From Candidatus Yanofskybacteria bacterium (lineage in GTDB: Bacteria > Patescibacteriota > Minisyncoccia > 2-02-FULL-40-12 > IGHO2-01-FULL-4-A), in assembly GCA_016181175.1 (NCBI GenBank), contig JACOZV010000001.1, forward strand, positions 75,778 to 139,777: DNA of 64,000 bases, given 5' to 3'. The stretch's first letter is position 1, and each line of letters opens with the position of its first letter. The notes under the pieces are model-generated. The model had not been told where the DNA came from, did no database searches, and saw only the letters and a program-made list of their open reading frames with translations. Made by a program: the position numbers and the translations under genes. Below, in pieces: positions 1,524 to 42,458 of the stretch.

Positions 1524-2003
1524 CTAAGACGCGATTCTGACCCTTTTTACTCTGTTTTTTGCCAGTTTCGGCAAGCGCAATGTTAAAATGCCGTTTTTCA
1601 TTGTCGCCTTTGCCTTATCGGCGTCTATTTCTTCCGGTAAAATTATAGAACGAGAGAAAGCTCCCCAATATAGCTCCTGATAGTAGTAATCAGATTCTTT
1701 TACTTTTTCCTCTGAACTGCGGTTGCCTTTGATGGTAACCATATCATTAGTAATAGAGACATCAATATCGTCTGCTGTTACGCCGGCAATGGTGGATTTT
1801 ATGATAATGTCGTTTTCAGTTTGATAAACGTCAACTGTTAACTGACCCTCCTCGGATCGGTTTGTTTTGATTGAGTTTTTGGATGCGATTAAACCAGCCT
1901 CGCCAGATTCTGCCACATTTGCTTCAGTTCCGAATTGTTCCGTGAAAAAATCGTTAGTCATCCCGTTAGAGGTAATCCCGCCAAGGTCTTTTGGGCTCGC
2001 CAA
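1524..2003 (-). CDS. Hsp20/alpha-crystallin small heat-shock protein
   Basis: 159 aa; C-terminal alpha-crystallin-type domain (…VTIKGN…GILTLRLPK…). Confidence 0.85.
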   Translation of the reverse strand: MASPKDLGGITSNGMTNDFFTEQFGTEANVAESGEAGLIASKNSIKTNRSEEGQLTVDVYQTENDIIIKSTIAGVTADDIDVSITNDMVTIKGNRSSEEKVKESDYYYQELYWGAFSRSIILPEEIDADKAKATMKNGILTLRLPKLAKNRVKRVRIAS

Positions 2004-2101
2004 GTCAGACTTGGCGAGCGGGACCTCTAATGGGACACGTCCTTTTAATTATAACACCTATTTTATTGATACAAATCCAGTCAAGTTGATAATTTGATAT
2101 T

Positions 2102-2836
2102 TTATCTGGAAGGATTTGATGTTTTTGCGGCAAGTTGCAACGCGTTTTTAAATTTGGTAAAAAATGCCGAAATTATTACAGCTATAAATATCAAAAATAT
2201 TGTTGAATAAATAAGACCTTCTGGTTTTCCGCCTGCACTTAGAATAATCATGTTAAAAATTAGATGTAAAAGTGTGGCCAGTGCAATGCCAAGGGTTATT
2301 AGCTTTTTGCAATGATGGCTGTAAAACCATGCCAGAGCCAAAAAGTAACCCACCATTGCAGAGGCGACAGCATGGAGCAGTGTGGCGCCGGCAAAGCGCA
2401 GGAGCCAGATTTGGAGAGCGGCATTTGTCCCATTGGGTATCGCCTGAAAAAGCACCAGAATATTTTCAATTGCCGCAAAACCAAGCGCTGCTGAAATCAT
2501 GTAGATCATCGCGTCGGTTGGTTCATCAAATTCAGGATCGTGAAGAACTACGAACTTTACAACAAGGAATTTTACGATTTCCTCAATCGCCGCTGCCCAC
2601 AAAAAAAACCAAACCGAAACTTGAATCAAATATCCCGGCTGGAAGTGAAGGACGGCTTCGCGGAATCCCCATTGTGCCGCTATGGCAAGCGGCGCCATAA
2701 CGATACCCAGTAAAAAAGTTTTTGAGACTAGATATTTGGGCTCGGGGTACGGATCTTTTTTAAGATAAAATAAAAGCCAGCTTAAACTGGGCACAAATCC
2801 CAAAACTACCAGCAAAATAATAGTGGAAGTAGCCAC
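2102..2836 (-). CDS. PrsW-like intramembrane metalloprotease
   Basis: Polytopic membrane protein with EEIVK (EExxK), FAAIE (FxxxE) and HLIFN (HxxxN) motifs. Confidence 0.7.
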   Translation of the reverse strand: MATSTIILLVVLGFVPSLSWLLFYLKKDPYPEPKYLVSKTFLLGIVMAPLAIAAQWGFREAVLHFQPGYLIQVSVWFFLWAAAIEEIVKFLVVKFVVLHDPEFDEPTDAMIYMISAALGFAAIENILVLFQAIPNGTNAALQIWLLRFAGATLLHAVASAMVGYFLALAWFYSHHCKKLITLGIALATLLHLIFNMIILSAGGKPEGLIYSTIFLIFIAVIISAFFTKFKNALQLAAKTSNPSR

Positions 2837-2854
2837 ACACTAATTTTAACACAA

Positions 2855-5074
2855 CTATACTGGCCAATCTTCCACAAGCAGAAGTTTTTTGTTGGAAACC
2901 GGCAGTTTAGACCAGATTTCTTCAGTAACGAAGGGCATAAAAGGGTGTAGAAGCTTGAGCGAATTGATAAGGATATAGGCAAGTGTATTTTTGGTTTCTT
3001 GATCTTCGTGGTCCTTGCTTTCTTCGATGTATTTATCGGCAAATTCATGCCAGATGAATTTGTACAAACTGTCGGCAGCTTCGGCAAAATCGTACTTTTC
3101 AATTTGTTGAGTGACGTAAATAGCGACAGCATCCATCTTTACGGTTATTTCGTTTTTGATATCTTGCGGCGATTTTAATATTTTCCATTCATAATCACTG
3201 CCCAGCTTCATTGTTGTATACCTGGCGATGTTCCAAACCTTATTTGCGAATTTTTTGCCCATAACCATCAAGTTTTCGCCGAATTTTAAGTCCTGCAATC
3301 TGGTTGCTTGTGATGCCAAGCCAAAACGCAAAGCATCTGTGCCGTATTTTTCAATCAACTCAAGCGGATTAATGCCGGTACCCAACGACTTAGACATCCT
3401 TTTACCGTCTTTAGTCAAAATCGTAGCGTGGATATAGACGTCCTTAAACGGCGCTTTACCGGTAAATTCCAAACCTGAAAAAATCATTCTTGCTTGCCAC
3501 AAAAATAAAATGCCGCGATCGGAAGTTATGAAATCCGTCGAATAATATTCATTGAAGTCTTCGGATTTTTTGTCGGGCCAGCCCAGTGTGGCAAACGGCC
3601 AAAGCGCCGAAGAAAACCAGGTGTCCAGAACGTCCTCCGACTGTTCATATTTGGCATCGCAGTATTCACAAAGCGGTTTTTCGGCGGAAATTTTAATTTC
3701 CTCGCATTTGTCTATGTCTTTTTCGTGGCCGGGTCGTGGAATGCATTTGGATTCGTGATGCCAGACGGGTAACTGGTGTCCCCACCAAAGTTGTCTGGAA
3801 ATGTTCCAGTCGCGAATATTTGAAGAATCCAGCCAGTTTTCAAGCGCTACTTGCCATCGGTTTGGGTGCAGGTTTACTTTGTTGCCGCGTATTGCTTCCG
3901 AGGCTCTCTCGGCTAGTTCTTTCATTTTTAAAAACCATTGCTTGCTTGGTAATGGTTCAATGACCGAGTTGCATCTGTCACAGCGCGCTATATTGTGGTC
4001 ATAGTCTTCAATTTTTTCCATTAGGCCGATAGCCTCCAAGTCTTTGACTATTTGTTCACGAGCTTCGGTGGTTTTCATACCTTGGTAGCGAATGCCAGCA
4101 TTTTCGTTCATGCGCCCATGCTTATCAATTATTGTAAGTGACGGTAAATTTTGGCGTTGGGCGATTTCAAAGTCAGTTAAATCGTGCGCCGGTGTAACCT
4201 TTATGATACCAGTGCCGAACCCCATGTCTACTGCCTGATCGGCAACTACTTTTATTGTCATTTTTTTGGTTTTTGCAGGTTCACTGGCCGGCACGCCGTT
4301 GTCTATAGATTCTATTTCTAAATTTTTTCCGACATAATCTTTGTAACGCGCGTCTTTGGGGTGTACGGCCAAAGCGGTGTCGCCAAGCTTGGTTTCCGGT
4401 CTGACGGTCGCTAAAGTAAAAGCCCCATATTTTATAAAGTAAAGTTTTGCTTTTTCGGGTAGATAGTTGACCTCCAGATCAGATATTGACGTTCCGCACC
4501 TGACGCACCAGTTTATTACTCTTTCGCCGCGATAAATCCATCCCTTTTTATGATAGTGGATGAATGCTTCTTGCACCGCTTTTTGGTAATCGGGGTCCAT
4601 GGTGAATCTTAACCTGGACCAGTCAGCCGACACCCCTAACTTTTTAAGCTGTTTCAAAATCGTGTTGCCATATTGATCACGCCATTTCCACATGCGTTCA
4701 AGAAACATCTCTCGGCCCAATTTGTGGCGACTTGTTCCTTCCTTGGCCAGTTGTTTTTCAACCGCATTTTGAGCGGCAATGCCGGCATGATCTGTCCCCG
4801 GTAACCACAAAGTCTTATATCCCTGCATTCTCTTGGTTCTTACTACGATGTCTTGCAATGTGTATTCAAGTGCGTGTCCCATGTGTAATTCGCCGGTAAT
4901 ATTTGGTGGAGCGATACAAGTTACAAAGGGCTTAGTTTCTTCGTGCTTGCCCTCCTTCGCCAAGGCTACGGAGGGTAGCCCTTCCGGGCTAAAAAATCCT
5001 GACTCCAGCCAGAGTTTGTAAGTTCTATCTTCAGTTGACTTAGGGTCGTAAGTTTTTGAAAACTCATCAGACAT
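2855..5074 (-). CDS. valS: Valyl-tRNA synthetase, short form lacking C-terminal coiled coil
   Basis: HMGH-type motif (TGELHMGHALEY) and KMSKS (KMSKSLGTG); class I editing aminoacyl-tRNA synthetase architecture. Confidence 0.9.
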   Translation of the reverse strand: MSDEFSKTYDPKSTEDRTYKLWLESGFFSPEGLPSVALAKEGKHEETKPFVTCIAPPNITGELHMGHALEYTLQDIVVRTKRMQGYKTLWLPGTDHAGIAAQNAVEKQLAKEGTSRHKLGREMFLERMWKWRDQYGNTILKQLKKLGVSADWSRLRFTMDPDYQKAVQEAFIHYHKKGWIYRGERVINWCVRCGTSISDLEVNYLPEKAKLYFIKYGAFTLATVRPETKLGDTALAVHPKDARYKDYVGKNLEIESIDNGVPASEPAKTKKMTIKVVADQAVDMGFGTGIIKVTPAHDLTDFEIAQRQNLPSLTIIDKHGRMNENAGIRYQGMKTTEAREQIVKDLEAIGLMEKIEDYDHNIARCDRCNSVIEPLPSKQWFLKMKELAERASEAIRGNKVNLHPNRWQVALENWLDSSNIRDWNISRQLWWGHQLPVWHHESKCIPRPGHEKDIDKCEEIKISAEKPLCEYCDAKYEQSEDVLDTWFSSALWPFATLGWPDKKSEDFNEYYSTDFITSDRGILFLWQARMIFSGLEFTGKAPFKDVYIHATILTKDGKRMSKSLGTGINPLELIEKYGTDALRFGLASQATRLQDLKFGENLMVMGKKFANKVWNIARYTTMKLGSDYEWKILKSPQDIKNEITVKMDAVAIYVTQQIEKYDFAEAADSLYKFIWHEFADKYIEESKDHEDQETKNTLAYILINSLKLLHPFMPFVTEEIWSKLPVSNKKLLLVEDWPV

Positions 5075-6181: not shown

Positions 6182-6275
6182 GGTTTAAAATTTTAACACA
6201 CCGGGTATATTTATCAACACACTCTTGCTTGAACTAGCGATACAGGATATGCTACAATAAACCCGTAGTACTAAT

Positions 6276-6350
6276 GGCCCTATCGTCTAATGGTTAGGAC
6301 GGCTTTCTTTCAAGAAGCAAATAGGAGTTCGATTCTCCTTGGGGCTGCCA
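6276..6350 (+). tRNA. tRNA-Glu(TTC) with encoded CCA
   Basis: D-arm TCGTCTAATGGTTAGGAC typical of tRNA-Glu; anticodon loop CTTTCAA; T-loop TTCGATT; ends GCCA. Confidence 0.75.
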
Positions 6351-7036
6351 TGGAATCAAGAAGAGATTATCAAGCAGCACTCGCTCTTAGACTTGAAGGA
6401 AAAACCTACGGAGAAATTAGGAAAAGTTTTCAAATACCAAAATCCACCCTTAGCACATGGTTTTCGAGTTTAAAGATAGATAGTGAGGCTAAAAAAGTTT
6501 TAGAATCTAAGAAAAAAAATGGTTATTACAAACTAGTTGAGTTTAATAAGATAAGGACCCTAAATATAAAGAAGGAAAACGAAAATATTAGAGGGGAGTA
6601 TGAATCTAAGATCGGTAGATTAAATAATCGTGAGTTGATGGTTCTGGGAGCTGCTCTTTACTGGGGAGAGGGCTACAAAAACTTCGGTCTTAAAAATGGC
6701 GGGTATCCATATATGTGTTTGGGTAATTCAGATCCCTCAATGATCAAAGTTTTCGTTATATTTTTGTATAAGTTTTTGAAAATTACCAAGGACAGGATCA
6801 AATGTCAGATAATGATCTATCCTAGCATAAACCCTCAAAAGGCAATTCAATATTGGCAAAATATTACGCAAATTCCAAGTAAAAACTTTCGTACTCAGCT
6901 AGCAGTGAGTCGTGCTAGTCAAGGTAAAAGGCCCAGCAATTTATTACCCTACGGAACACTTCAATTACGGGTTAATAACCGACAGGAGTTTTTCAAAATT
7001 AAAGGATTAATTGATGGTATCACTCAAACTATTTAA
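6351..7036 (+). CDS. HTH-domain plus LAGLIDADG-like endonuclease-like protein (paralog A); its ATG follows the tRNA-Glu CCA directly
   Basis: N-terminal HTH-like LRLEGKTYGEIRKSFQIPKSTLSTWF; LGAALYWGEG resembles the LAGLIDADG motif; paralogous to 8478..9110. Confidence 0.5.
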
Positions 7037-7124
7037 TCTATGCTAATTTTGCTGGGCATTACAAATTAGTCGAGCGATGGTGAGGCAAGAAGTGAAGCCG
7101 ACTCTCCGTGTTGCTAATTTAGTA

Positions 7125-7160
7125 AAATAAACGGCTCATCTGGATGAGCCGTTTATTTTA
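7125..7160. terminator. Bidirectional rho-independent terminator
   Basis: AAATAAACGGCTCATC-TGG-ATGAGCCGTTTATTTT, between convergent genes. Confidence 0.75.
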
Positions 7161-7509
7161 TTGCATTTTGTGATATTTCAACTATTTTTTTAAAAATTCC
7201 AGGTTCGTGTTGGGCTAGGTCGGATAGAATCTTACGGTCTAGCTCTATGTTGGATTTTTTGAGTCCGTTGATAAATTTGTTGTAGGGGAGACCATCAAGC
7301 CGCGTGGCGGCTCCAATCTGAATTTGCCATAATCGGCGGGCGTAACCTTTCTTTTTGCGGCGGTCGTTGAACTGAAATGTCCAGGCATGCAAAAGACGCT
7401 CTTTGGCCTGACGATATTTGGTACTCCCGCCCCACATAAAACCCTTTGCATGTTTCAGCAAATTTTTACGTCGTTTGTTTGCAGTTGTTCCTCGTTTTAC
7501 TCTGGGCAT
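7153..7509 (-). CDS. rplT: 50S ribosomal protein L20
   Basis: MPRVKRGTTANKRRKNLLKHAKGF… canonical L20. Confidence 0.95.
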   Translation of the reverse strand: MPRVKRGTTANKRRKNLLKHAKGFMWGGSTKYRQAKERLLHAWTFQFNDRRKKKGYARRLWQIQIGAATRLDGLPYNKFINGLKKSNIELDRKILSDLAQHEPGIFKKIVEISQNAIK

Positions 7510-7515
7510 GTTTTA

Positions 7516-7719
7516 TTAAACGTAAGGCATCAAATTCCTAATATCTTTTTTATTAGGCTTGGCAAGCACATCCTGACCCCTGTTATTCCTTCTTGCGCTT
7601 CCATCTTGTCTAGCGTTGAAGTGATTAATGCGTGAATGGCGATGCTGTTTCTTGCCGCTAGACGAAATCTTAAAACGTTTTAAGGCAGACTTAGAACTTT
7701 TTAACTTTAGTTTTGGCAT
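7516..7719 (-). CDS. rpmI: 50S ribosomal protein L35
   Basis: MPKLKLKSSKSALKRFKISSSGK… canonical L35. Confidence 0.9.
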   Translation of the reverse strand: MPKLKLKSSKSALKRFKISSSGKKQHRHSRINHFNARQDGSARRNNRGQDVLAKPNKKDIRNLMPYV

Positions 7720-7736
7720 ATTAGAAATATTTACTT

Positions 7737-8267
7737 TTATTTTTTATGTTCCGGTCTTATTAACACGCCGAAACCTACTGGTGATCTTTTGGCTGGTTCT
7801 TCCAGTACGAACGGTTCGGAAACCATTTTGATAAGTGATTCAAGCTTGCTTCGGCCAATGTCGGCCATGCTTTTTTCGCGTCCCCGCAGAGTCAGCTCCA
7901 GTCTAACGCGGTGTCCTTTTTGCAAAAATTTATCTGCTTGTCCGGCTCTAACCATTAAGTCGTGAGTCCCGGTTCTAAAACCGATTCTTACGGTTTTAAT
8001 TTCTTGGCTGGGGACTTTGGTTGTTTTTCCGCCCTTTTCTCGTTTTTCCTTCTGGTACATATATTTACCATAATCCATGATTTTAGCAATAGGCGGATTG
8101 GCCATCGGTCCCACTTCTACCAAATCAAGACCGCGTTCATTGGCCAATCTCAAAGCTTCATGTGTGGGTATGGTGCCAAGCTGTTTGCCGTCGGCGTCAA
8201 TGACCTGAATTTGCGATTCCCTGATTTGGTTATTTAACCGCACTCTTTTATTGAAGTTTTTTTGCAT
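7737..8267 (-). CDS. infC: Translation initiation factor IF-3
   Basis: IF-3 N- and C-domains (…IDADGKQLGTIPTHEALRLANERGLDLVEV…); infC-rpmI-rplT operon order. Confidence 0.9.
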   Translation of the reverse strand: MQKNFNKRVRLNNQIRESQIQVIDADGKQLGTIPTHEALRLANERGLDLVEVGPMANPPIAKIMDYGKYMYQKEKREKGGKTTKVPSQEIKTVRIGFRTGTHDLMVRAGQADKFLQKGHRVRLELTLRGREKSMADIGRSKLESLIKMVSEPFVLEEPAKRSPVGFGVLIRPEHKK

Positions 8268-8337
8268 ATATTTATTTATATAAGTTTAACACGCAGTCTT
8301 TGTTTTTTACCATGTTGGGTGTTTGCAAAGTATCTTA

Positions 8338-8411
8338 TGGTGGACCCACGGGGAGTCGAACCCCGGACTCGATCATGCCATGATCGCGTGTTACCGCTAT
8401 ACTATGGGCCC
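8338..8411 (-). tRNA. tRNA-Ala(GGC) with G3:U70 and encoded CCA
   Basis: Reverse complement gives GGGCCCA…TGGGTCCACCA; anticodon loop ATGGCAT; G3:U70 alanine identity pair; one D-stem mismatch. Confidence 0.7.
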
Positions 8412-8477
8412 CCTTAGACAGGATACTTATAAACTAGTGCTATGTTATAAGTTCGGGTACTATGTTATAATTGTAGC

Positions 8478-9110
8478 ATGCATATTCATAGCGATCAAAT
8501 CATAAATAACCTCAAATTATTGCGCAAAAAGGGGTACAGCATACATGAGTTAATGGACAAATTTTCTTTACCGAAAACAACAATATGGCACCATGTTCAT
8601 AAAATAAAATTACCGCCAGAAATTATATTACGACTTAGGACTGCTGGAGGTAGAACTAGTAGTGCTCGTAAAAAACTGGCTTTAGAAAAAGCAGAAAAAG
8701 AAGCATCAGAAATCATTAATAGCAATCTAAAGTATCATGTGAGTATTTTGGCAATGCTCTATTGGGCAGAAGGTGATAACAAAAATAATTTTTCCTTCGT
8801 CAATACCAATGCTGGCATGATTAAACTCGTAATACACATACTGGATAAATGTTTGGGTGTGAAAAGAAATCAATTATTAATAACGGTTCGATACTTTACA
8901 GGCATGGATCAAAATAAGTGTCTGGAGCATTGGTCAAAAGTTACAGGAGTTTCCAAAAATCGTATTAGAATGTATTATAACGATGGTTATCACAGGGGAA
9001 GAACAGAATTTGGAATGTGTCGGATTGGAGTAAAAAAAAGTAGCTATCTTTTTAAATTGGTCCGATCATTAATTAACGGCTTAGTTAACGAAATAATTTT
9101 GCCCCGGTAG
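8478..9110 (+). CDS. HTH-domain plus LAGLIDADG-like endonuclease-like protein (paralog B); its stop codon overlaps the tRNA-Arg 5' end
   Basis: HTH-like NNLKLLRKKGYSIHELMDKFSLPKTTIWHH; LAMLYWAEGD matches LAGLIDADG at 6 of 9 positions; shares motif blocks with 6351..7036. Confidence 0.5.
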   Translation: MHIHSDQIINNLKLLRKKGYSIHELMDKFSLPKTTIWHHVHKIKLPPEIILRLRTAGGRTSSARKKLALEKAEKEASEIINSNLKYHVSILAMLYWAEGDNKNNFSFVNTNAGMIKLVIHILDKCLGVKRNQLLITVRYFTGMDQNKCLEHWSKVTGVSKNRIRMYYNDGYHRGRTEFGMCRIGVKKSSYLFKLVRSLINGLVNEIILPR

Positions 9111-9173
9111 CTCAATTGGAAGAGCGGTCCCGTCCTAAGGGAAAGGTTGTGGGTTCAAATCCTGCCCGGGGTA
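9101..9173 (+). tRNA. tRNA-Arg(CCT); no encoded CCA
   Basis: GCCCCGG acceptor, D-arm GCTCAATTGGAAGAGC, anticodon loop GTCCTAA, T-loop TTCAAAT; one anticodon-stem mismatch. Confidence 0.7.
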
Positions 9174-9180
9174 CTTATTA

Positions 9181-10659
9181 GTGCAAAAATCAAAAAGTAA
9201 AAATCAAAGTTACGAAATTCCTAAAGAAGTTAGGGAGGTTTTGAATAAACTTGAGAGCACGGACTACGAAGCCCATATTGTCGGCGGGAGCGTGAGACAC
9301 TTGATAATGGGCGAACAGCCGAATGACTGGGATATAACCACCAACGCTAAACCCGAAGAAATACAACAACTTTTTCCCGATAGTTTTTACGAAAACAAAT
9401 TCGGAACTGTTGGTATTAAAACCCGTAGCGACGATTCGGTTTTGCAAGTAGTGGAGGTTACGACTTATCGCATTGAGTCTAAATATACCGACAAAAGGCA
9501 TCCCGATGAAATTAAGTATGCCGATAAAATTGAAGACGACCTGAAAAGGAGGGATTTTACAATTAATGCCCTCGCAATGAACAGCAGCGGAGAAATTATT
9601 GACTTATTTGGCGGTCGTGAGGATATAAAAAATAAGATTATTCGCGCAGTCGGTAATCCCGGTGAAAGATTCAGCGAAGACGCTTTGCGTATGATGCGAG
9701 CGGTTAGGTTTGTGGCCCAGCTTGGTTTTGAAATTGAACACGACACCCTTGAAGCAGCCAGGGAAAATAACGGACTTATGGCGGCTGTATCCAAGGAGCG
9801 CATTCGCGATGAGTTTGTTGGAGTAATCAACTCACAGGATGCTTACAAAGGCGTAGACATGCTTCGCGAAACAGGATTGCTGAAATTTGTTTTGCCGGAA
9901 CTGTTGGAAGGTGTAGGCGTCGGTCAAAACAAACACCACATTTATAATGTTTGGGAGCACAATCTGCTAGCTCTCAAATATGCTTGTGACAAAAACTATT
10001 CGTTTGAAGTTCGTATGGCCTCATTGCTTCATGACGTCGGTAAACCCAGGAGTAAAAGAGGGGAGGGACCAGATTCTACTTTTTATGGTCATGAGGTAAT
10101 CGGTGCGTTCATGGCCGCACAGATTATGGATCGTCTTAAATTTTCCAAGGAGCAAGCCGATAAAATTATTAAATTGGTGCGTTATCATCTTTTTTACTAC
10201 AATGTTGGCGAGGTTACGGAATCGTCGGTCAGGCGTCTTGTCGCGAATATTGGCAAAGAAAATGTTGAAGATTTGATAAAAGTGCGTGAAGCCGATAGAA
10301 TCGGTTCGGGTGTGCCTAAGGCTAAGCCATACAAGTTGCGCCATCTGCAGTTTATGATAGACAAGGTGGCGCGGGATCCTATTTCTCCCAAGATGCTCAA
10401 GATAAATGGAAATGACATAATGGAATTGCTGGGCATTAAGCCGGGTGTAAAGGTTGGCATGATTGTACATGCACTTATGAATGAAGTGCTGGACAAACCA
10501 AGTAAAAATACCAGAGAATCTCTTGAAGCAAGAGCCAGAGAATTAAATCAACTTTCAGAAACTGAACTTGCTGAATTCGGCAAAAAAGGTAAACAAAAAG
10601 CTTTAACCGAAGAAGAAAAAGAAATAGAAAAAATTAAAGCGAAATATTATGTGGAATAA
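9181..10659 (+). CDS. cca: CCA-adding enzyme (tRNA nucleotidyltransferase, PolyA-polymerase head plus HD domain), GTG start
   Basis: GGSVRHLIMG…DWDI…RRDFTINALA nucleotidyltransferase motifs, then an HD domain (LLHDVGK). Confidence 0.85.
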   Translation: MQKSKSKNQSYEIPKEVREVLNKLESTDYEAHIVGGSVRHLIMGEQPNDWDITTNAKPEEIQQLFPDSFYENKFGTVGIKTRSDDSVLQVVEVTTYRIESKYTDKRHPDEIKYADKIEDDLKRRDFTINALAMNSSGEIIDLFGGREDIKNKIIRAVGNPGERFSEDALRMMRAVRFVAQLGFEIEHDTLEAARENNGLMAAVSKERIRDEFVGVINSQDAYKGVDMLRETGLLKFVLPELLEGVGVGQNKHHIYNVWEHNLLALKYACDKNYSFEVRMASLLHDVGKPRSKRGEGPDSTFYGHEVIGAFMAAQIMDRLKFSKEQADKIIKLVRYHLFYYNVGEVTESSVRRLVANIGKENVEDLIKVREADRIGSGVPKAKPYKLRHLQFMIDKVARDPISPKMLKINGNDIMELLGIKPGVKVGMIVHALMNEVLDKPSKNTRESLEARARELNQLSETELAEFGKKGKQKALTEEEKEIEKIKAKYYVE

Positions 10660-34612: not shown

Positions 34613-35151
34613 GGCCATAATCAAATATATGAATAAATTCCACAATAATTTCATAACAAAAAGCGGCTGAAGCCAAGTTCTTAATTTGCGTTTACAAGCA
34701 GCCGCGTAAATCGCGGATTTTTTATCAAAATTGAATATATTAGAGCCATTATTGGCTGTCGTCGGGCATCTCCTTACGGAGGTGCCCGACGGAAGCTAAC
34801 ACTAAACCGATTGAATAGATTGCAATTTAAAAAATAAATAGTTAGCGGGTATCCCGGTTAGAGCTTGCGATTGCCACAAGTGGCAATCCACCTCTAACGG
34901 GATTAAAAAATTGCATTTCTGCATTTAGAAATGAGTTCCAAAATGCAGAATAAGTAGATTGAATTCGATCTATCAATAGAGATCGAGGATTTAATCTTGT
35001 AAGGAATTATTAAGGGCGTATGGAGGATGCCTTGACACCAAAAGGCGACGAAGGACGTGGCGTGACGACGATATGCTTCGGGGAGCCGTCTAGCGGGCTT
35101 TGATCCGGAACATCTCAGTAGCCAGAGGAAAATAAAACAAACCCCGCACCT

Positions 35152-35273
35152 TTTGAGCACAAGATTTTATTTGGCATCCGCATTGTGATGCGTGGCTGAC
35201 GGATATTAATTATTTGTTGTTTGCGCACTACATTTCGGAATCTAATTGACACTAGTGCTTAAAAGGTGCGGGG
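35152..35273 (+). repeat. Hairpin insertion in the 23S 5' domain, flanked by 13-bp inverted repeat CCCCGCACCTTTT / AAAAGGTGCGGGG (family B)
   Basis: Inserted between GAGGAAAATAAAACAAA and AACATTTCCTAAGTAGCGGCGAGCGAA; same IR termini as 57160..57227 and 42283..42458. Confidence 0.65.
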
Positions 35274-35652
35274 AACATTTCCTAAGTAGCGGCGAGCGAA
35301 AGGGAAACAGTCTAAACTCTTGTTTATTAAGTTTACTTAGTGAGTGGGAGTGTTGTAGGAAGGATTTTTTTCTAAACACTGGACATCTGCATATACTCTT
35401 GTGCGGATATCCAGGAAATTAGGATTGAGTTACAAAGTTAGATGTTAGCTGAACGGTCCTGGAAAGGCCGACCAAAGAGGGTGATAGTCCCGTAAACCAA
35501 AACCTCTAATCTCAATCAACCGAGCACATAACTTTTAGGAGTTATGAGCTCGGTTGGAAAATCCTCTCCTGAGTACCCATGGAGCAGACTATCCGTGGCG
35601 AAGCCGGGCCTACTACGGTCCAAGACTAAATACTTTTGGTGATCGATAGTGA

Positions 35653-35686
<34 letters not shown>

Positions 35687-35799
35687 GGTTAGGGGAGTGA
35701 AATAGAACTGAAACCATATGCCTACAAAGAGCCGAAGCCCTTCCCGTCGCAAGACGGTCAGGGTGACGGTGTGCCTATTGAAGAATGATCCAACGAGTT

Positions 35800-36128
35800 T
35801 TTACAAGTGGTTTATCCAGCTTCACTTTTGGTTTATGATGACTTTATGTGGATAGTTTATATTATTCAGAACAATCTAACTGAAAAAATATATATTGGCT
35901 GTACAAATGATCTCAAGAAACGAGTCGAAAAGCATAACAGCCAAACAAATAAAGGTTATACAAGACGACTTATCGGTCAATGGATTTTGATATACGCGGA
36001 AGCTTATAGAAGCAAAGAAGATGCTTTTCGACGGGAGTCAAAACTCAAAGACCACGGTAGTTCTAAACATGAATTGAAGAAGAGAATCAGCAATTCATTG
36101 TTAAAACCAAAAGTGAGGCTGGATTAAG
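35800..36128 (+). mobile_element. Stem-bounded intervening sequence in the 23S helix-25 region carrying a GIY-YIG ORF
   Basis: 19-bp stem CCAGCTTCACTTTTGGTTT (35816-35834) / AAACCAAAAGTGAGGCTGG (36104-36122) enclosing the ORF; inserted between …GAATGATCCAACGAG and GGATAAGCCCGTATAGGG…GGAAACCGAGTG. Confidence 0.65.
35846..36127 (+). CDS. GIY-YIG nuclease-family protein (YhbQ/UPF0213-like) encoded inside the 23S IVS
   Basis: WIVYIIQNNLTEKIYIGCTNDLKKRVEKHN…YTRR…WILIYAEAYRSKEDAFRRESKLK is a GIY-YIG motif set; an alternative GTG start lies at 35807. Confidence 0.7.
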   Translation: MWIVYIIQNNLTEKIYIGCTNDLKKRVEKHNSQTNKGYTRRLIGQWILIYAEAYRSKEDAFRRESKLKDHGSSKHELKKRISNSLLKPKVRLD

Positions 36129-36582
36129 GATAAGCCCGTATAGGGTGCATCCGTAGGGAAACCGAGTGTTAAAAGCGCGACTTAATCGCTTGTAAAAGAC
36201 CCGAAGCCAGGTGAGCTACCCATGGCCAGGATGAAGTTTGTCGAAAGACAAATGGAGGTCCGAACTAGTTGATAGCGCAATATCATTGGATGAGCTGTGG
36301 GTCGGAGTGAAAAGCTTATCGAACCTGGTAATAGCTGGTTCTCCCCGAAATGCCTTTAGGGGCAGCGCCGGTGAGTAGTCGCGGGGGTAGAGCTCTGAAT
36401 GGTTTGCCGTGCCAGCAATGGTAGGCTTACCAAACAAACTACGAATACCGCGGTGTAATCGCCGGTAGTGAGACTGTGAGGGCAAAGCTTCATAGTCGCG
36501 ACGGGATTAGCCGTTTGACCACCGCTTAAGGTCCCTAAATCTATGCTAAGTGTTAAAGGAAGTCATTTTCCTTAGACAGGTA

Positions 36583-36624
<42 letters not shown>

Positions 36625-37305
36625 CAGCTTACTGCTCGAATTCTAATTTCGGTTAGACGAGGAAAGTGGCGCCGAAGATTCAACGGGGCTAAGCATAGTA
36701 CCGAATGCGTGGACCGTCCCGATTTATCGGGATGAGTGGTAGGGGAGCACTTCAAGCCGCTGCGAAGGTGTGTCGTGAGGCATGCTGGAGCGCTTGGAGG
36801 AGAGAATGTTGGAATGAGTAACCACAAGCGAGGTGAGAACCCTCGCCGCCGTAAGCCTAAGGTTTCCTCCGCAATGTCAATCACCGGAGGGTTAGGCGAC
36901 GCTAAGGATAACCGTGCCTACGGGCATGGGAAGCCGATGCTAAGCCGGTTAATATTCCGGCCCTTCCATATGTATTGATGGAGCGACGGAGGATATAAGC
37001 TGGAGCAGATTATTGGATTTCTGTTTTTGGATTCCAGGATTGTCGTTTGGAAAATCCGGCGACTGACTTTAATGTCAAAATACGAATTTGAAGAAATCAC
37101 GGGTAACCGTGGGATTCCAGTGAAGAGCCTTCCAAGAAAAACTTCTAAAATTATGCATATGGGAAACGTACTTAAAACCGACACAGGTGGGCTAGTGTAA
37201 GTGCACTAAGGCGAACGGGTGATTATTGGCTAAGGAACTCGGCAAAAAAGTGGCCGTACCTTCGGTATAAGGCCTACCTGACCGTGCCTCACTGCGTTCG
37301 GCACG

Positions 37306-37410
37306 AATTTTTAAATTTTTAATTTTATAATTTTAATAAATAATTTCTAATGTTTAAAAATTAAAAACATTAAGATTTATTTAAAAATTAAAAATTGGAA
37401 ATTAAAAATT
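37306..37410. repeat. AT-rich palindromic hairpin repeat (family A), full ORF-less copy inserted in a variable 23S helix near the helix-63 region
   Basis: AATTTTTAAATTTTTAATTTTATAATTTTAATAAATAATTTCTAATGTTTAAAAATTAAAAACATTAAGATTTATTTAAAAATTAAAAATTGGAAATTAAAAATT; arms are mutual reverse complements; central mini-hairpin TAATGTTT/AAACATTA; flanked by 23S exon sequence. Confidence 0.75.
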
Positions 37411-37632
37411 CTAACAAGCCGAGCATAGCGAGGCGCGGTTGGGTCGCAGCTAACGAACCCCTGGCGACTGTTTATCTAAAACACAACTCTGTGCTAAGCC
37501 GAAAGGCGCTGTATACAGGGTGACGCTTGTCCAGTGCTGGAACGTTAACGGTGGAGGTGGTATGCAGCAATGTGTATTGCCAACGCCCGAAGCGCCAGTG
37601 AACGACGGCGATAACTATAATCGTCCAAAGGT

Positions 37633-38949
37633 TTTGAGAATTTGTCAGATGGCAAGTTCTCAAAAGGACTTGGCCGATTGTAGTGAATTTATATTGATAA
37701 ACAAAAGTAGCTGCCTATCGCGTGACGAAAGTTTTACGCGATGTCTTAAAATATATTCGATCATATGCTGGAAAGTCTGAGTATCCACAACTACTATGGT
37801 ATGATGTTACCTTTGGTGATAAAATATATCTATGCCAAGTAAAAATGTTAGTGGTGCAGACGATCAGCAGGAAAGTCTGAAAATGATGGGTTGGATAACA
37901 GGTTTTGTTGATGGGGAAGGATGTTTTACTGTCAGTATATTCAAGAATTACAAAGCTCAACGCAAGCTCGGATGGCAAGTATTCCCTGAGTTTGTAGTTT
38001 CCCAAGGAGAGAAGAGCTTGAGCGTTCTCGAACTGATCAAGAACTACTTCAACTGTGGTTATATAATAAAAAATAAAAGGAACGATAACCACCACGAAGA
38101 TATGTTCAAATACTGTGTGAGATCTTTGTCGGATCTAGAAACCAAAATTGTGCCATTCTTTACCCAAAACAAACTCCTAACCGCAAAGCGAAGAGATTTT
38201 ATAATCTTTAAGGAAATCCTAAAAATGATGGGTCGCAAGGACCACCTTAACCTTAAAGGACTTAGAAAAATTGCCTCTCTAGCTTTGCAGATGAATCGTA
38301 AAAAAAGACCCAAGTTTTCAGAAATCCTCAGAGACTAAACGTCGAACCCGCTCAAATTTTTGGACTTAAATAAAAAAAACCTCAACTGAGGTTTCGATGA
38401 ATTTGCTATTAATAATCAATTATAGGAGCTTGTTCGTGCCGCTTATCTATACCTTTAAATCTACTGTCGGTACGGATTTTCCTAATGGTATTTCGTGGTA
38501 ATTCACATTGAATCAGCATAATATCATTGTTTCTGAGTTTAACATTAAATTCTACTATGCCATATTCTATAAAATATATAATAAGAGATGCTACCCAGCG
38601 TACATGAACACGAAGAGTTAATTTTTCCATGAATTTTCCACCTTTCTTTTGTGATTTAAAATGAACTTTGAAATGCAACACCAATAAACTAAATGTTTAC
38701 TGGTTTGCCCTACTCGCCCTGATTTGTAAAAGGATGAGGAAAATAAGGATAACCCTTTACTTTACTCGTCTTTTAGCTGATTTTTATTGTAAAATAAGGA
38801 CAAATCAGATGTTGCACTTCGGGGGTAAATGCGAGCGAAGAAACCCAGTGGTAAGTATAAATCAATTAAAATTTAGTGTCAATAGTCCAAAAATTTGAGC
38901 GGGAAGATATAGTCCGAACTGCATGGCGACATGCAGAGTAACATACTTA
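37633..38949 (+). mobile_element. Intron in 23S at the E. coli ~1917 site (CCAAAGGT | AGCGAAATTCC) carrying a LAGLIDADG homing-endonuclease gene
   Basis: Exon junction reconstitutes AAGGTAGCGAAATTCC; 1317-nt insert; internal 19-bp long-range pairing CCCGCTCAAATTTTTGGAC / GTCCAAAAATTTGAGCGGG; 3' motif GAACTGCATGGCGACATGCAGAG shared with the insert at 39499. Confidence 0.7.
37832..38338 (+). CDS. LAGLIDADG homing endonuclease (single-motif, I-CreI-like), intron-encoded
   Basis: 168 aa; MMGWITGFVDGEGCF LAGLIDADG motif. Confidence 0.8.
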   Translation: MPSKNVSGADDQQESLKMMGWITGFVDGEGCFTVSIFKNYKAQRKLGWQVFPEFVVSQGEKSLSVLELIKNYFNCGYIIKNKRNDNHHEDMFKYCVRSLSDLETKIVPFFTQNKLLTAKRRDFIIFKEILKMMGRKDHLNLKGLRKIASLALQMNRKKRPKFSEILRD

Positions 38950-39169
38950 AGCGAAATTCCTTGTGGGGTAAGTTCCCACGCGCATGAATAGCGGAACGAC
39001 TGGGGGACTGTCTCAGCCAATAGCCCGGTGAAAATGCAATGTCAGTAAACGAGTTTTTATGCGTAGTGTAGTGGCGAGCCTTTGAAGTCATGTTCTTGGA
39101 TGTGATGGAGGCGACAATGAAACAGCCATCTTAAAGACTTGTAATTCTAACTGGTGTAACCCTAGGAGG

Positions 39170-39441
39170 TAAAATATGTTTTCTGATAAAAAACCAATAG
39201 AATATTGGATGCAAGAACTAATGAATCTAAAACATGAATGTGATCTGATGACAGAAAGGATAAGGAGTACCAGAGCGAACATTGAATATCTAATAGATTC
39301 AATCAAAGACAGAAGTCCAAAAGGAGTTGACCCAGAAAAATGGAAAAAGTTTTTAGCAGAATGGAATTCGTTTCAAATTGAATATAGTAACTTCCAATTT
39401 TAGTTTAAGTCGCCCTATTTTTAGGCAAGTTTTATTTGCCT
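39170..39441 (+). mobile_element. Stem-bounded IVS in the 23S domain V (helix-79-equivalent) region with a 75-aa ORF preceded by a perfect SD
   Basis: 14-bp stem GTAACCCTAGGAGG / CTTCCTAGGGTTAC encloses the insert; AGGAGGTAAAATATG gives SD spacing of 6 nt. Confidence 0.6.
39176..39403 (+). CDS. Small helical hypothetical protein encoded in the 23S IVS
   Basis: 75 aa (MFSDKKPIEYWMQELMNLKHECDLMTERIRS…); strong SD; no recognised family. Confidence 0.45.
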   Translation: MFSDKKPIEYWMQELMNLKHECDLMTERIRSTRANIEYLIDSIKDRSPKGVDPEKWKKFLAEWNSFQIEYSNFQF

Positions 39442-39498
39442 CTTCCTAGGGTTACATCAAGACAGTGCCTGGTGGGTAGTTTAACTGGGGCTGTTGCC

Positions 39499-39995
39499 TT
39501 AACGCGGTATTCGTTACACCGCATGGGGCCTACTGAAAGTAATTTCAGTATGCAAATTCGACTATATGCTGGAACCCCCGCGCATATCTGAATACTCTAC
39601 TTAGTAGCTGAGCTACTAAGTAAGTGAAAATTTTGGATCGATGCGGACAATCAGCAGGGAAGTTCTTCAATTAAATTCAGGACCCCTCAACGACTGTACG
39701 TCGAGTGCCGCGAAGCGGCAATGATACAGTCTGAACTGCATGGCGACATGCAGAGCTGGGCAGAAATGACCCGGCCGCCTATAAAATTTGGTTTTTTAAG
39801 GCCATGTTTTATGGGAAGGGTTTAGCGAATAATGCCTTATAGCACCGTTGAAGCTGTGCGATTGCACGGTTTGCGAGCAGTATAATTTTTCACTGCGAGT
39901 AAAATCCACAGATTCAACGGAGCGTAGCAACCTCGCTGGGGTTGCAAGCGGTGATAGAAGGTATTATTCGCTAAACCTGCAAAGTAACACAATTG
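39499..39995 (+). other. ORF-less structured insertion (intron or IVS) in 23S between GGGGCTGTTGCC and CCTAAAGAGTAACGGAGG
   Basis: About 497 nt with no ORF of 60 aa or more; contains GTCTGAACTGCATGGCGACATGCAGAG, near-identical to the 3' motif of the 37633..38949 intron, and a 20-bp internal stem GGTTTAGCGAATAATGCCTT / AAGGTATTATTCGCTAAACC. Confidence 0.5.
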
Positions 39996-40250
39996 CCTAA
40001 AGAGTAACGGAGGCGTTCATTAAGGTCGGCTAGCTGCGGATGGAAATCGCAGCGATAGTGTAAAGGCAAAAGCCGGCTTAACTGCGAGACGGATGTGTCG
40101 AGCAGGTGCGAAAGCAGGACTTAGTGAACCGACCGTTGGTCGTAGGACCGCGGAAGATCATCAGACAAAAGCTACTCCGGGGATAACAGGCTGGTACTGC
40201 CCGAGCGTCCCTAGCGACGGCAGTGTTCGGCACCTCGATGTCGGCTCGGC

Positions 40251-40769
40251 TTTTAATCGACTTTTTAACTGTTTGAGCCCGAGGAAAAGACATCAAAATA
40301 TAAATCACGGCGCAATAATATAGGAATATATTATTGACTGCTAACTTATATCGGTAAAACCCATTCGGTAAACTCGGGGTAATACCGAGAGAAGTTATTT
40401 GTTCAAATTTTTGGAAAAATAAAAAAGACCCTATTGGGTCATGTAAAATATGGCAAATGGTAAGGTAATGGCTAAAACAAATTGAAAGCGACAGAGACCA
40501 TCAGTATAGATTTTTTTGAAAGATCCAAGGGCTATAAGAGAGTTAAAAATCCAGAAAATAAGCATTAAAACCAGAGATATTAGCAGTTGTTGGGAGTTCA
40601 TTATTGCCTCCTAAATTAAATATAATTGATTATTAAATTATTGTCAATACCCAATTAATTTGACTCCAAAAATTTGAACAAATAACACTCGTAGAGACTA
40701 AATGTTAGCCATCCAATCTGCCAATCAGTGGAGGATGAAGTTATGGTCCAATGCACATAGTAATATGTG
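40251..40769 (+). other. ORF-less insertion in 23S after CACCTCGATGTCGGCTCGGC (E. coli ~2510 region); boundaries unresolved
   Basis: About 500 nt without an ORF; internal long-range pairing TTGTTCAAATTTTTGGAAAAAT / GACTCCAAAAATTTGAACAA resembles the module in the 37633..38949 intron; exon resumes near GAAACATGCGTGAGACAGGTTGGTCC. Confidence 0.4.
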
Positions 40770-40840
40770 GAAACATGCGTGAGACAGGTTGGTCCTTATC
40801 TGGTGCGGGCGTTGAAGTTTGAGGGGGGTTGTCCCTAGTA

Positions 40841-41614
40841 AGAAATTGCTACTTCACGCAGTAATGCGTGATGACAACTCGGCTAATAACGGTGAAATCT
40901 TATTATTTTTGTGTTCGTTGATAACTACAATTGTCGCGGTCCGACAATTATAGTACAATTTACTTGAGGACCAGAAATAATTAAGACGATACCGTGGGAA
41001 GTCAATCTAAAATTGATTTAGCATATATTGCAGGTTTTCTTGATGGTGACGGAAGCTTGATGTTACAAATCAAGAGACGCAAAGATGGAACCAAAAAGTT
41101 TCGCTTTATGTCTACAATTTGTTTTTATCAGGATAGTAACCACGAAGAATTTCTGCATTGGATAAAAAATATTCTTGGAATTGGTTATTTGACTCAAAGA
41201 GATGATGGCATGAGTGAACTAAGAATTAATGGATTTAAACAAGTTAAAGATATAATAAAAAACTTATTGCCATTTATTAAATTCAAGAAAAATCAAGCCA
41301 ATGCTATTTATGAAGCAACTAGCATGATGAGCAGTAAGATTCTAAGCCGTTTAACCAAGCAGGAATTGTTAAAAATCGTAGATTTAATGCTTATAATTCA
41401 AAAGCATAATTATAAATCTAGAAGCAAGAAAACCAAAAAAGAACTCATTCAATTATTAGATTTGACCCCGTAACGACTTGTCGAGTTTAGCTCGACGGAT
41501 GATTAGCGATGAGATTGCATCAATGGTTAATCATAACATGCCGATTCCCTGAATCCGCTTTTTGCGGGAGGGAAAAGATATAGTCTACACTTATAGTGAT
41601 ATAAGATTTTGTGA
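40841..41614 (+). mobile_element. Intron in the 23S sarcin-ricin loop (CCCTAGTA | CGAGAGGACCGG) carrying a LAGLIDADG homing-endonuclease gene
   Basis: Flanking exons reconstitute CCTAGTACGAGAGGACCGG exactly; 774-nt insert. Confidence 0.7.
40994..41473 (+). CDS. LAGLIDADG homing endonuclease, intron-encoded
   Basis: 159 aa; LAYIAGFLDGDGSL LAGLIDADG motif. Confidence 0.8.
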   Translation: MGSQSKIDLAYIAGFLDGDGSLMLQIKRRKDGTKKFRFMSTICFYQDSNHEEFLHWIKNILGIGYLTQRDDGMSELRINGFKQVKDIIKNLLPFIKFKKNQANAIYEATSMMSSKILSRLTKQELLKIVDLMLIIQKHNYKSRSKKTKKELIQLLDLTP

Positions 41615-42282
41615 CGAGAGGACCGGGATGAACGAACCTCTGGTCTACCAATTGTTTTGCCAAAAGCAGCGTTGGGTAGCTATGTTCGGTTCCGATAAGC
41701 GCTGAAAGAGATTTGAGGCGAGGCGAAGCAAAAACAACGAGGCATGGCTTGTGCCATGTCAAGGAGTTTTTGTGAAGCCGCAGCTCAAATATATAAATTG
41801 CAGCAGAAATGATTATTAAGTCGGAGGCACAAAGATTCGTGAGAGATTATCACGTTGATAGGGCGCAGGTGTAAGCGCGGTAACGCGTTCAGCCGAGCGC
41901 TACTAATAAATCATCAATTCCTTACAAGATTAAGTCCTTATGACCTTCGCGCTTAAACTGCGGAGCCCCCAAAATCTAAGGGGCTGGCCGCAGTTAAGCC
42001 GCAAGGATTTGCCCAATTTCTTCGTTAAGCACTCCGGTGCTCCCTCGCCATACCTCTAGTATGGCTCGGTTCACTCCTCGTGCTTGCCTCGAACTTGGCC
42101 AAACGCGAAGGTCAAAAATGCAAAAACACCCCTTTAACTATAAAAACTAAAAACCATTTGCTTGGTGGTTATACCGGAAGTGTCCCACCCGATCCTCCCG
42201 CCCATGTACACATAGGCGGGATTGCGATTTGCAGTTGTGCTCGTTACACTGTGCGCAAGCAAATCGGTAACATTCAGACTTG

Positions 42283-42458
42283 CCCCGCACCAAAATTAAA
42301 AATTAAAGCCAGCAAGTTGGTGACTATACTGTGAGTGCTCCACCTGTTCCCATTCCGAACACAGAAGTGAAATCTCGCAAGGCCCATGATAGTACAGTGC
42401 TTAGCATTGTGCGAAAGTAGGTAGTCGCCAGCTTGCTGGTTTTAATTTTGGTGCGGGG
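42283..42458. repeat. Family-B inverted repeat (CCCCGCACCAAAATTAAAA … TTTTAATTTTGGTGCGGGG) enclosing the 5S gene as an extended processing-stem/hairpin
   Basis: Left arm 42283-42307, right arm 42440-42458, 19 bp perfectly complementary. Confidence 0.6.
42308..42439 (+). rRNA. rrf: 5S rRNA with a 16-bp extended terminal helix
   Basis: GGTGACTATACTGTGAGTGCTCCACCTGTTCCCATTCCGAACACAGAAGTGAAATCTCGCAAGGCCCATGATAGTACAGTGCTTAGCATTGTGCGAAAGTAGGTAGTCGCCAGC; ends GCCAGCAAGTTGG / CCAGCTTGCTGG pair. Confidence 0.8.

Follow-up and report, generated by a model that had tools for sequence, protein, structure and literature searches.

Genes A and B are two paralogous genes in a 64,000-nt stretch of a Candidatus Yanofskybacteria genome (contig JACOZV010000001.1), hereafter called the window. 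Each of them shares nucleotides with a tRNA gene, and they belong to a large protein family whose sampled members mostly adjoin tRNA genes. Our tentative reading is that both are free-standing genes of the homing-endonuclease type, with the adjoining tRNA gene as their home and probable target. In this reading, the proteins would bind DNA site-specifically and probably cleave it. To our knowledge, the linkage between this family and tRNA genes is among the tightest gene-tRNA linkages known.

Linkage of the family to tRNA genes

The linkage, which we consider our strongest result, was analysed in 80 genomic loci, a few additional look-ups and the window, whose pooled tRNA calls gave 95 family open reading frames (ORFs); the 80 loci were picked by similarity to gene A, which biases the proportions of the clades. 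We defined adjacency as the presence of a same-strand tRNA gene at most 100 nt upstream or at most 30 nt downstream of the family ORF. By this definition 85 of the 95 ORFs adjoin a tRNA gene, and most of the other ten are located at contig ends, or have a tRNA gene on the opposite strand or slightly farther away. Adjacency on the 3' side alone, i.e. a same-strand tRNA gene that starts at most 30 nt past the stop codon or overlaps the ORF, was found for 60 of the 95 family ORFs (63%) versus 15 of 1,075 control ORFs (1.4%), the latter being ORFs of at least 150 residues from the same and other loci. An earlier note on this stretch had stated that its proposal would be refuted by homologs never adjacent to tRNA genes, a prospect that these counts decisively contradict.

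In a neighbour-joining tree, the clades map one-to-one onto tRNA species, with four clades associated with Glu-UUC, Arg-CCU, intron-less Phe-GAA and Phe-GAA with a group I intron. Genes of the Glu clade, which includes gene A, always follow tRNA-Glu(UUC), and their start codon is found 0-3 nt past the tRNA end in 15 of 21 loci. In the Arg clade, to which gene B belongs, the ORF enters tRNA-Arg(CCU) by 10-39 nt in all ten loci. Members of the third clade lie before an intron-less tRNA-Phe(GAA), and those of the fourth clade, a large one, accompany tRNA-Phe(GAA) genes interrupted by a group I intron. Among more distant members, one with 26% identity (L082:2570-3684; also in L083) lies 40 nt past tRNA-Val in a tRNA-Gln/tRNA-Val array of a 260-kb contig, counted as viral by its IMG/VR listing. 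The copy of Actinomadura flavalba is located 101 nt before a tRNA-Gln gene confirmed by ARAGORN, and in A. parmotrematis, where the genes are arranged in the same order, a gap occupies the tRNA-Gln position.

The members found in these two cultured actinomycetes (L173:3001-4448, L175:3001-4599) have tandem domains. Their genes sit between a fatty-acid desaturase/TetR pair and glmU-prs, with an additional ADP-ribosylglycohydrolase gene in A. parmotrematis. In L093, an unrelated 520-aa membrane-protein ORF (1836-3395, minus strand) starts at the same ..GCCATG junction of a tRNA-Glu gene (3365-3442), which shows that, in Patescibacteria, genes outside the family can also start on the 3' end of a tRNA.

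Beside many family members, stretches of 350-500 nt left uncalled by ARAGORN proved to be group I introns in Rfam (RF00028). Automatic in-silico splicing followed by ARAGORN gave ambiguous tRNA identities, and we used explicit exon reconstruction instead, which yielded perfect tRNA-Phe(GAA) genes split after U33 (site 33/34). Such split genes, missed by ARAGORN, are present in at least 32 patescibacterial loci (within L019-L076; e.g. L042:4699-5010 and L061:3653-3946). The introns span about 220-425 nt, most of them 220-300 nt, and harbour no ORF. Thirty-one family members flank an intron-bearing tRNA-Phe gene, on either side of it, and this linkage persists through gene-order flips between sister sequences. 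A tRNA intron at the same 33/34 site was reported for one patescibacterial genome, and patescibacterial tRNA introns self-splice in vitro (PMC13011429). ARAGORN and Rfam detected no intron in the tRNA-Glu or tRNA-Arg genes beside genes A and B. The arrangement typical of collaborative homing, a gene next to the host of an endonuclease-less intron, is thus found in the 31 loci of the Phe sister clade and not at genes A and B. By analogy with collaborative homing, the family neighbour is a candidate partner of the endonuclease-less tRNA-Phe intron.

A small ORF of about 95 residues is found between tRNA-Arg(CCU) and the Phe-clade gene in several loci (L031:1452-1818, L032, L043, L048, L052, L026 and L064). 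It reads MDPELK..EEIHALAKDNHRMLRAIRR.., followed by one hydrophobic helix and ..YLYQQYLQPIV, and a conserved promoter region, TCCACAA...TCGTACCAGYGAG..TATAAT, comes after it. The gap of about 370 nt upstream of Phe-clade genes had been considered as a decayed family copy or an RNA gene; this was rejected, as the gap holds this conserved small membrane-protein ORF.

Genes A and B at their tRNA boundaries

Six tRNA genes were called by ARAGORN in the window, and only two of them, tRNA-Glu and tRNA-Ala(GGC), encode CCA (Table 1). This agrees with the count in the earlier note, which also correctly placed the gene for the CCA-adding enzyme inside the tRNA cluster. Its description of the two contacts needs adjustment in the details. 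The ATG of gene A is indeed located at the CCA of tRNA-Glu, but it occupies 6350-6352 rather than starting at 6351, and it shares 1 nt with the tRNA gene (..GGGGCT-G-CCA|TG) rather than abutting it. Similarly, the TAG of gene B at 9108-9110 does lie within tRNA-Arg, although not at its first bases: the last 10 nt of the gene are positions 1-10 of the tRNA, and the stop codon corresponds to U8-A9-G10.

Both genes are free-standing, as had been proposed. Their products are paralogous, with 24% identity over approximately 206-216 residues of each in a 220-column alignment (BLASTP E 1e-10). The product of gene A is identical to HYT61_00480, a hypothetical protein from a metagenome-assembled genome of Candidatus Yanofskybacteria. 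A longer ORF starting at ATG 6290, inside tRNA-Glu, is the source of homolog gene calls of 248-250 aa, and many gene A homologs are indeed annotated 20 aa too long, with a start called within tRNA-Glu. The NCBI version of gene B (MBI2062711.1) is shorter, with 185 aa and a start 25 codons later that skips 8478-8552; the 210-aa form is the one kept across homologs. The order gene B-tRNA-Arg-cca is a conserved synteny in L164, L168, L169 and L172, and loosely in L165. Beyond this conserved order, we found no functional link between CCA status and genes A and B.

Table 1. Positions of genes A and B, their tRNA neighbours and associated features in the window
Feature	Position	Strand	Basis and remarks
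Promoter-like site with hexamers TTGAAC and TACAAT, 18 nt apart, the latter preceded by TG	6229-6258	+	Consensus scan; upstream of tRNA-Glu
tRNA-Glu(UUC), encodes CCA	6276-6350	+	ARAGORN, Rfam RF00005, sequence; final A is the A of the gene A ATG
Gene A, 228 aa, Glu clade	6350-7036	+	ORF; HTH, long helix and C-terminal alpha/beta domain
Gene A N-terminal HTH, residues 1-40	6350-6469	+	Model helices 7-15, 20-27, 31-37; Pfam and PDB HTH profile matches
Gene A C-terminal LAGLIDADG-like alpha/beta domain (weakly supported), residues 91-228	6620-7033	+	
Gene A LYWGEG block, L103-G108	6656-6673	+	Sequence, family alignments; helix 93-107 ends with E107
Hairpin with 25-nt arms, T and A runs on either side	7116-7167	.	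Predicted bidirectional terminator, common to gene A and convergent rplT
tRNA-Ala(GGC), divergent from gene B	8338-8411	-	ARAGORN; partner kept in gene B orthologous loci
Extended -10, TGtTATAAT	8463-8471	+	Sequence; 6 nt before the gene B ATG
Gene B, 210 aa, Arg(CCU) clade, gene A paralog	8478-9110	+	ORF
Gene B LYWAEG block, L94-G99	8757-8774	+	Sequence, family alignment
tRNA-Arg(CCU), without encoded CCA	9101-9174	+	ARAGORN, Rfam; overlapped by the gene B 3' end
CCA-adding enzyme gene (cca)	9181-10659	+	Pfam PF01743, PF12627, PF01966 (HD), PF13735

Promoters and terminators were called as pattern matches, from which their functions are deduced. Gene A could be driven by a single promoter-like site, the one upstream of tRNA-Glu, and a TTGAAC..CGATA.. 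element is kept in close orthologous loci. As there is no room for a separate promoter after tRNA-Glu, gene A must be co-transcribed with the tRNA, in keeping with the co-transcription proposed in the earlier note. Because the start codon is 0-3 nt past the tRNA end, tRNA 3' processing would free a practically leaderless mRNA. Most gene A orthologs follow a tRNA without CCA, with the junction ..G-C-ATG; an extra C in the window creates the CCA that overlaps the ATG.

The gene B mRNA is also predicted to be leaderless, and the spacing between its -10 box and the ATG recurs among gene B orthologs as well as Phe-clade genes. In members located upstream of their tRNA, the ORF may stop 0-25 nt before the tRNA gene, often with the TGnTATAAT box of the latter in between. 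Others read into the tRNA up to a stop codon, often the conserved U8-A9-G10. An RNase P cut of a read-through transcript would strip gene B of its stop codon. The divergent promoter region of gene B and tRNA-Ala carries two tandem copies of the 14-nt sequence GTRCTATGTTATAA (8437-8450 and 8457-8470, 20-nt spacing), overlapped by a palindrome (8425-8437 / 8440-8452); together they represent a candidate operator. No operator motif common to the loci was found.

The protein family, its C-terminal domain and its inheritance

A word-indexed search returned 346 homologs for gene A and 62 for gene B. By profile search against 1.84 billion representatives, the family comprises 6,663 clusters (50% identity) at E ≤1e-3 and 3,824 at E ≤1e-10. 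Most members come from ultrasmall Patescibacteria; Actinomadura encodes relatives with tandem domains, the 260-kb viral contig carries one copy, and no match was obtained among 50,697 deposited phage genomes. Our literature search found no domain model, name or publication for this family. The proteins harbour an N-terminal helix-turn-helix (HTH) domain, as proposed in the earlier note; of 117 family members scanned, 81 match HTH_23, with E values down to 1e-8, and there are matches to HTH_SB and HTH_28 as well. The C-terminal two thirds have no match in Pfam, NCBIfam, PHROG or PADLOC, in which only the HTH was recognized, and phmmer and hmmsearch analyses of PDB sequences likewise returned HTH chains only. 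Domain scans of the family and of genes A and B detected no RNA-binding domain.

In an alignment of 57 family sequences, L103, W105, E107, N126, W169 and G202 (gene A numbering) are invariant, and the sequence blocks reported earlier as shared by the two proteins correspond to conserved columns. Among 117 diverse members, E107, G108, N126, W169 and G202 are invariant, and L103, Y104, W105, K110 and D128 are nearly so. E107, which corresponds to E98 of gene B, is thus invariant in both alignments. Single-chain relatives with one HTH and two C-terminal domains (C-domains) were also identified, namely P0214 (A. flavalba WP_018653366.1) and P0219, as well as proteins with more than two units (P0210, P0233). 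A Glu-clade copy in L017 (3953-4663) contains an in-frame stop codon at 4193-4195, which reflects either pseudogenization or faulty assembly; it is the sole interrupted copy among the 95.

Our structural statements all rest on predicted models. The AlphaFold2 model of the full gene A protein has a mean predicted local distance difference test (pLDDT) score of 84.6, and residues 91-228 alone were modelled with a pLDDT of 89 and a predicted template modelling (pTM) score of 0.82. The protein consists of the N-terminal HTH, a connector helix of about 45 residues and an alpha/beta domain of about 135 residues. The first helix of the latter (residues 93-107) ends in the signature motif LYWxEGxK and is closed by E107, an acidic residue in the same place as in LAGLIDADG enzymes. 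E107 and E98 are thus conserved acidic residues that end a putative interface helix, and their catalytic role is a prediction. LAGLIDADG homodimers became single-chain monomers in the course of evolution, and we take the one-chain relatives with two C-domains as a structural clue that mirrors this transition.

Several observations weigh against the homing-endonuclease reading, regarding both fold and inheritance. According to DSSP on the AlphaFold2 model, the elements of the C-domain are ordered a-b-a-b-a-b-b-a, without the b1-b2 hairpin of the LAGLIDADG canon, a-b-b-a-b-b-a. Genes A and B do not match PF00961, PF03161 or PF14528 at E ≤10, and these three families are not among the 25 most frequent ones for the 117 members at E ≤1. 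The genome's own two LAGLIDADG ORFs match PF00961 readily (E 1e-24 and 6e-10), and hhalign comparisons of the family profile with these proteins or with a 120-sequence alignment of them gave probabilities of 1-2%. Foldseek analyses against the PDB yielded nothing at E <0.01, and the 50 best matches listed include no LAGLIDADG protein; the insignificant matches are OmpA-like. The likeness to LAGLIDADG proteins suggested in the earlier note thus finds support in the invariant Glu that closes the first helix, and none in Pfam, hhalign, Foldseek or strand order. With evidence on both sides, we label the domain LAGLIDADG-like, a weakly supported designation, without assigning it to that fold. A DDE transposase identity was rejected because of the small size of the C-domain, which moreover lacks a Pfam match.

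As to inheritance, the order valS-tsaD / tRNA-Glu-gene A / rplT-rpmI-infC holds from 77% to 40% gene A identity. In the Glu clade, the identity of gene A tracks those of valS and tsaD (Spearman 0.67 and 0.78, respectively), and among close relatives gene A is more conserved than tsaD. With a single interrupted copy, in L017, gene A has the look of a gene that is useful to its host and passed on vertically, and less that of a parasite going through cycles of gain and loss. The tRNA-Glu genes do not differ systematically between occupied and empty loci, and an immunity conferred by tRNA-Glu sequence variants was rejected for the same reason. Intron-less tRNA-Phe genes adjoin family members in 14 loci. 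We provisionally regard the genes of the Glu and Arg clades as having resided at their sites for a long time, diverging broadly in step with the neighbouring genes.

Other observations, on empty sites, base composition and paralogy, speak for mobility or dispensability. At least six metagenomic loci (L084-L086, L092, L093 and L126) keep valS-tsaD and tRNA-Glu, with other genes after the tRNA; in L084, tRNA-Glu is 734 nt away from tsaD and does not directly adjoin it. These empty sites come from a TsaD-based metagenome scan that returned mostly unrelated bacteria and that establishes their existence rather than their frequency. With approximately 34-35% GC, and 31-32% GC at third codon positions (GC3), genes A and B represent the minimum of their neighbourhood, compared with 42.5 ± 3.6% GC and 40% GC3 for the long ORFs of the window. 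Their GC content is close to that of LAGL2 (30%), one of the two LAGLIDADG endonuclease genes of the genome, the other having 38%. Gene A orthologs are AT-rich in 12 of 15 hosts, with about 30-36% GC versus 38-47% for the host. The gene-to-host divergence ratio is 0.77 within the close subclade versus 1.25 between subclades, a mild shift that constitutes weak evidence, and synonymous sites are saturated at protein identities of 75% or less. Paralogs occupy equivalent positions beside different tRNA genes in one genome, with two in the window and three within 8.6 kb in L062. A tRNA island of the tyrosine-integrase type was rejected: no att-like or tRNA-derived direct repeats flank either gene, and each is a single gene of 0.6-0.7 kb without an integrase.

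The rRNA operon of the window (35000-42433) is heavily interrupted, with an Rfam match to the large-subunit rRNA at 35000-37750 and one to 5S rRNA at 42316-42433. The 4.5 kb between the two include a group I intron match (39472-39753). Two canonical single-motif LAGLIDADG_1 (PF00961) ORFs are present in 23S insertions, at 37832-38338 (E 1e-24) and 40994-41473 (E 6e-10).

Competing explanations and comparison with known systems

If genes A and B are of the homing-endonuclease type, their C-domains would pair via the motif helix, as suggested by the single-chain relatives with two C-domains. The paired invariant Glu residues might then hold a catalytic metal, and the HTH would supply flanking DNA contacts. 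An allele devoid of the gene would be cut and repaired from the occupied allele, so that the gene is copied to the same tRNA boundary. Expression of gene A would ride on the tRNA-Glu promoter, with the near-leaderless mRNA released by tRNA 3' processing, and gene B borrows its stop codon from tRNA-Arg. A broader proposal is that these genes represent a new class, each hard-wired to one tRNA, with mRNA ends set by tRNA processing, and that they encode active nucleases self-maintained at tRNA boundaries, those of the Phe clade also mobilizing endonuclease-less group I introns. Taken as a whole, this proposal appears unlikely to us.

The proteins could instead be domesticated regulators similar to WhiA, in which a former endonuclease scaffold with its HTH binds the promoter or operator of the adjoining tRNA unit and tunes the expression of both the tRNA and its own gene, each paralog being kept by its target. 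We regard this explanation, the main rival, as possible, albeit on the unlikely side. It would account for the HTH being the only domain detectable by sequence, for the conserved synteny, the co-divergence with valS and tsaD and the conservation of gene A above tsaD in close relatives, and for the near absence of pseudogenes. The tRNA promoters (TGnTATAAT) located in or just past the 3' ends of upstream-type members are also in line with it, as are the tandem 14-nt repeat and the palindrome at 8425-8470, upstream of gene B. The acidic motif residue and its polar surroundings have been lost in the WhiA family; in contrast, 117 distant members of our family all retain this residue together with several of the polar ones nearby. 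Genes A and B do not match the WhiA Pfam model at E ≤10, nor is it among the 25 most frequent families for the 117 members, and by these marks neither gene is a WhiA. The lack of the genes in genomes that share the tRNA-Glu synteny, their AT-rich synonymous sites, similar to those of the homing endonuclease gene LAGL2, the copies found at other tRNA genes on the viral contig and in Actinomadura, and the failure to find an operator motif common to the loci also argue against a regulator of this kind.

An action at the RNA level appears improbable. The proteins would in that case recognize either the precursor of the adjoining tRNA or the group I intron of tRNA-Phe, as maturases or processing helpers, or serve as sensors of RNase P or RNase Z processing, the latter idea stemming from the fact that the mRNA ends are defined by the tRNA. 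Some LAGLIDADG proteins serve as group I intron maturases, one large clade is linked to intron-bearing tRNA-Phe despite gene-order flips, the 5' end of gene A and the stop codon of gene B depend on tRNA processing, and gene B is syntenic with the gene for the CCA-adding enzyme. Nevertheless, no intron is located near the genes of the two clades of the window or in 14 Phe-clade loci, HTH domains of the HTH_23 and resolvase types bind DNA, no RNA-binding domain was detected, and patescibacterial tRNA introns self-splice in vitro (PMC13011429). We give still less credit to the notion, very improbable in our view, that extreme compaction of the genome brought about the tRNA contact as a side effect, with the C-domain an unrelated small alpha/beta fold of other function. 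The unrelated L093 ORF with its start at an identical tRNA-Glu junction (CCATG), the similar squeezing of cca and dcd between tRNA genes in the window and the preference of Foldseek for OmpA-like folds are compatible with this explanation. Nevertheless, the present data argue strongly against pure compaction: 3' adjacency is found for 63% of family ORFs versus 1.4% of controls, it is specific to each clade and tRNA species, and it recurs on the viral contig and in the non-compact genome of Actinomadura.

Several thousand sequence clusters thus lack a domain model or a name. If the homing-endonuclease reading is correct, the family would represent a compact, HTH-assisted new branch of LAGLIDADG-like enzymes whose natural targets are universally conserved tRNA genes, relevant to mobile-element biology and meganuclease engineering. 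As regards the tRNA-Phe introns, the family genes found beside 31 intron-bearing genes offer a concrete, testable alternative. If the Phe clade mobilizes introns, this would account for the spread of patescibacterial tRNA introns. If tRNA processing sets the mRNA ends, protein output would be a read-out of RNase P and RNase Z activity. A start at the end of one tRNA combined with a stop inside another would represent a bacterial analogue of mitochondrial tRNA punctuation. The cultivable Actinomadura homologs open the way to experiments.

The family resembles single-motif LAGLIDADG enzymes of the I-CreI and I-CeuI type (PF00961), which include the two from the 23S insertions of this genome, by its small size and AT-rich composition, and by a first helix that ends in a motif rich in small residues, with an invariant acidic residue followed by Gly. 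Further resemblances are a predicted alpha/beta sandwich with a four-stranded sheet and the existence of one-chain relatives with two domains, which recall how LAGLIDADG homodimers gave rise to pseudo-dimers. It differs from these enzymes in that profile-level similarity is lacking and the a-b-a-b-a-b-b-a order has no b1-b2 hairpin, in the addition of an N-terminal HTH and a long connector helix, and in the location of the genes at the edge of tRNA genes, never within an intron or intein. With WhiA (DUF199), the family shares the combination of a LAGLIDADG-type scaffold with an HTH, encoded by a chromosomal, vertically inherited gene. WhiA is a transcription factor with two degenerate LAGLIDADG domains and a C-terminal HTH, whereas the family proteins have one such domain, an N-terminal HTH and an invariant acidic motif residue, and the family shows a patchy distribution with several paralogs per genome.

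The genetic setting evokes that of SegB, in a tRNA gene cluster of phage T4, and of F-CphI, beside an intron-containing psbA gene, where an intergenic, free-standing nuclease-like gene accompanies a conserved gene. Family copies are similarly found within tRNA arrays, one of them on a viral contig, and the sister clade beside tRNA-Phe with an endonuclease-less group I intron recalls the collaborative homing of F-CphI. The proteins also share a modular organization, with an HTH DNA-binding module and a catalytic-type module. Known cases of the SegB and F-CphI type are GIY-YIG or HNH enzymes in phages, whereas the host of the family is a cellular lineage in which the genes look vertically stable over deep divergence. 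Finally, mRNA boundaries at tRNA ends, the predicted leaderless mRNA and the dependence of the coding end on events at the tRNA boundary are reminiscent of mitochondrial tRNA punctuation and of the tRNA-mRNA co-transcript of Escherichia coli tufB. In contrast with mitochondrial punctuation, the case described here is known from sequence and is the trait of one gene family rather than a genome-wide rule, and its stop codon lies inside the tRNA instead of being completed by polyadenylation.

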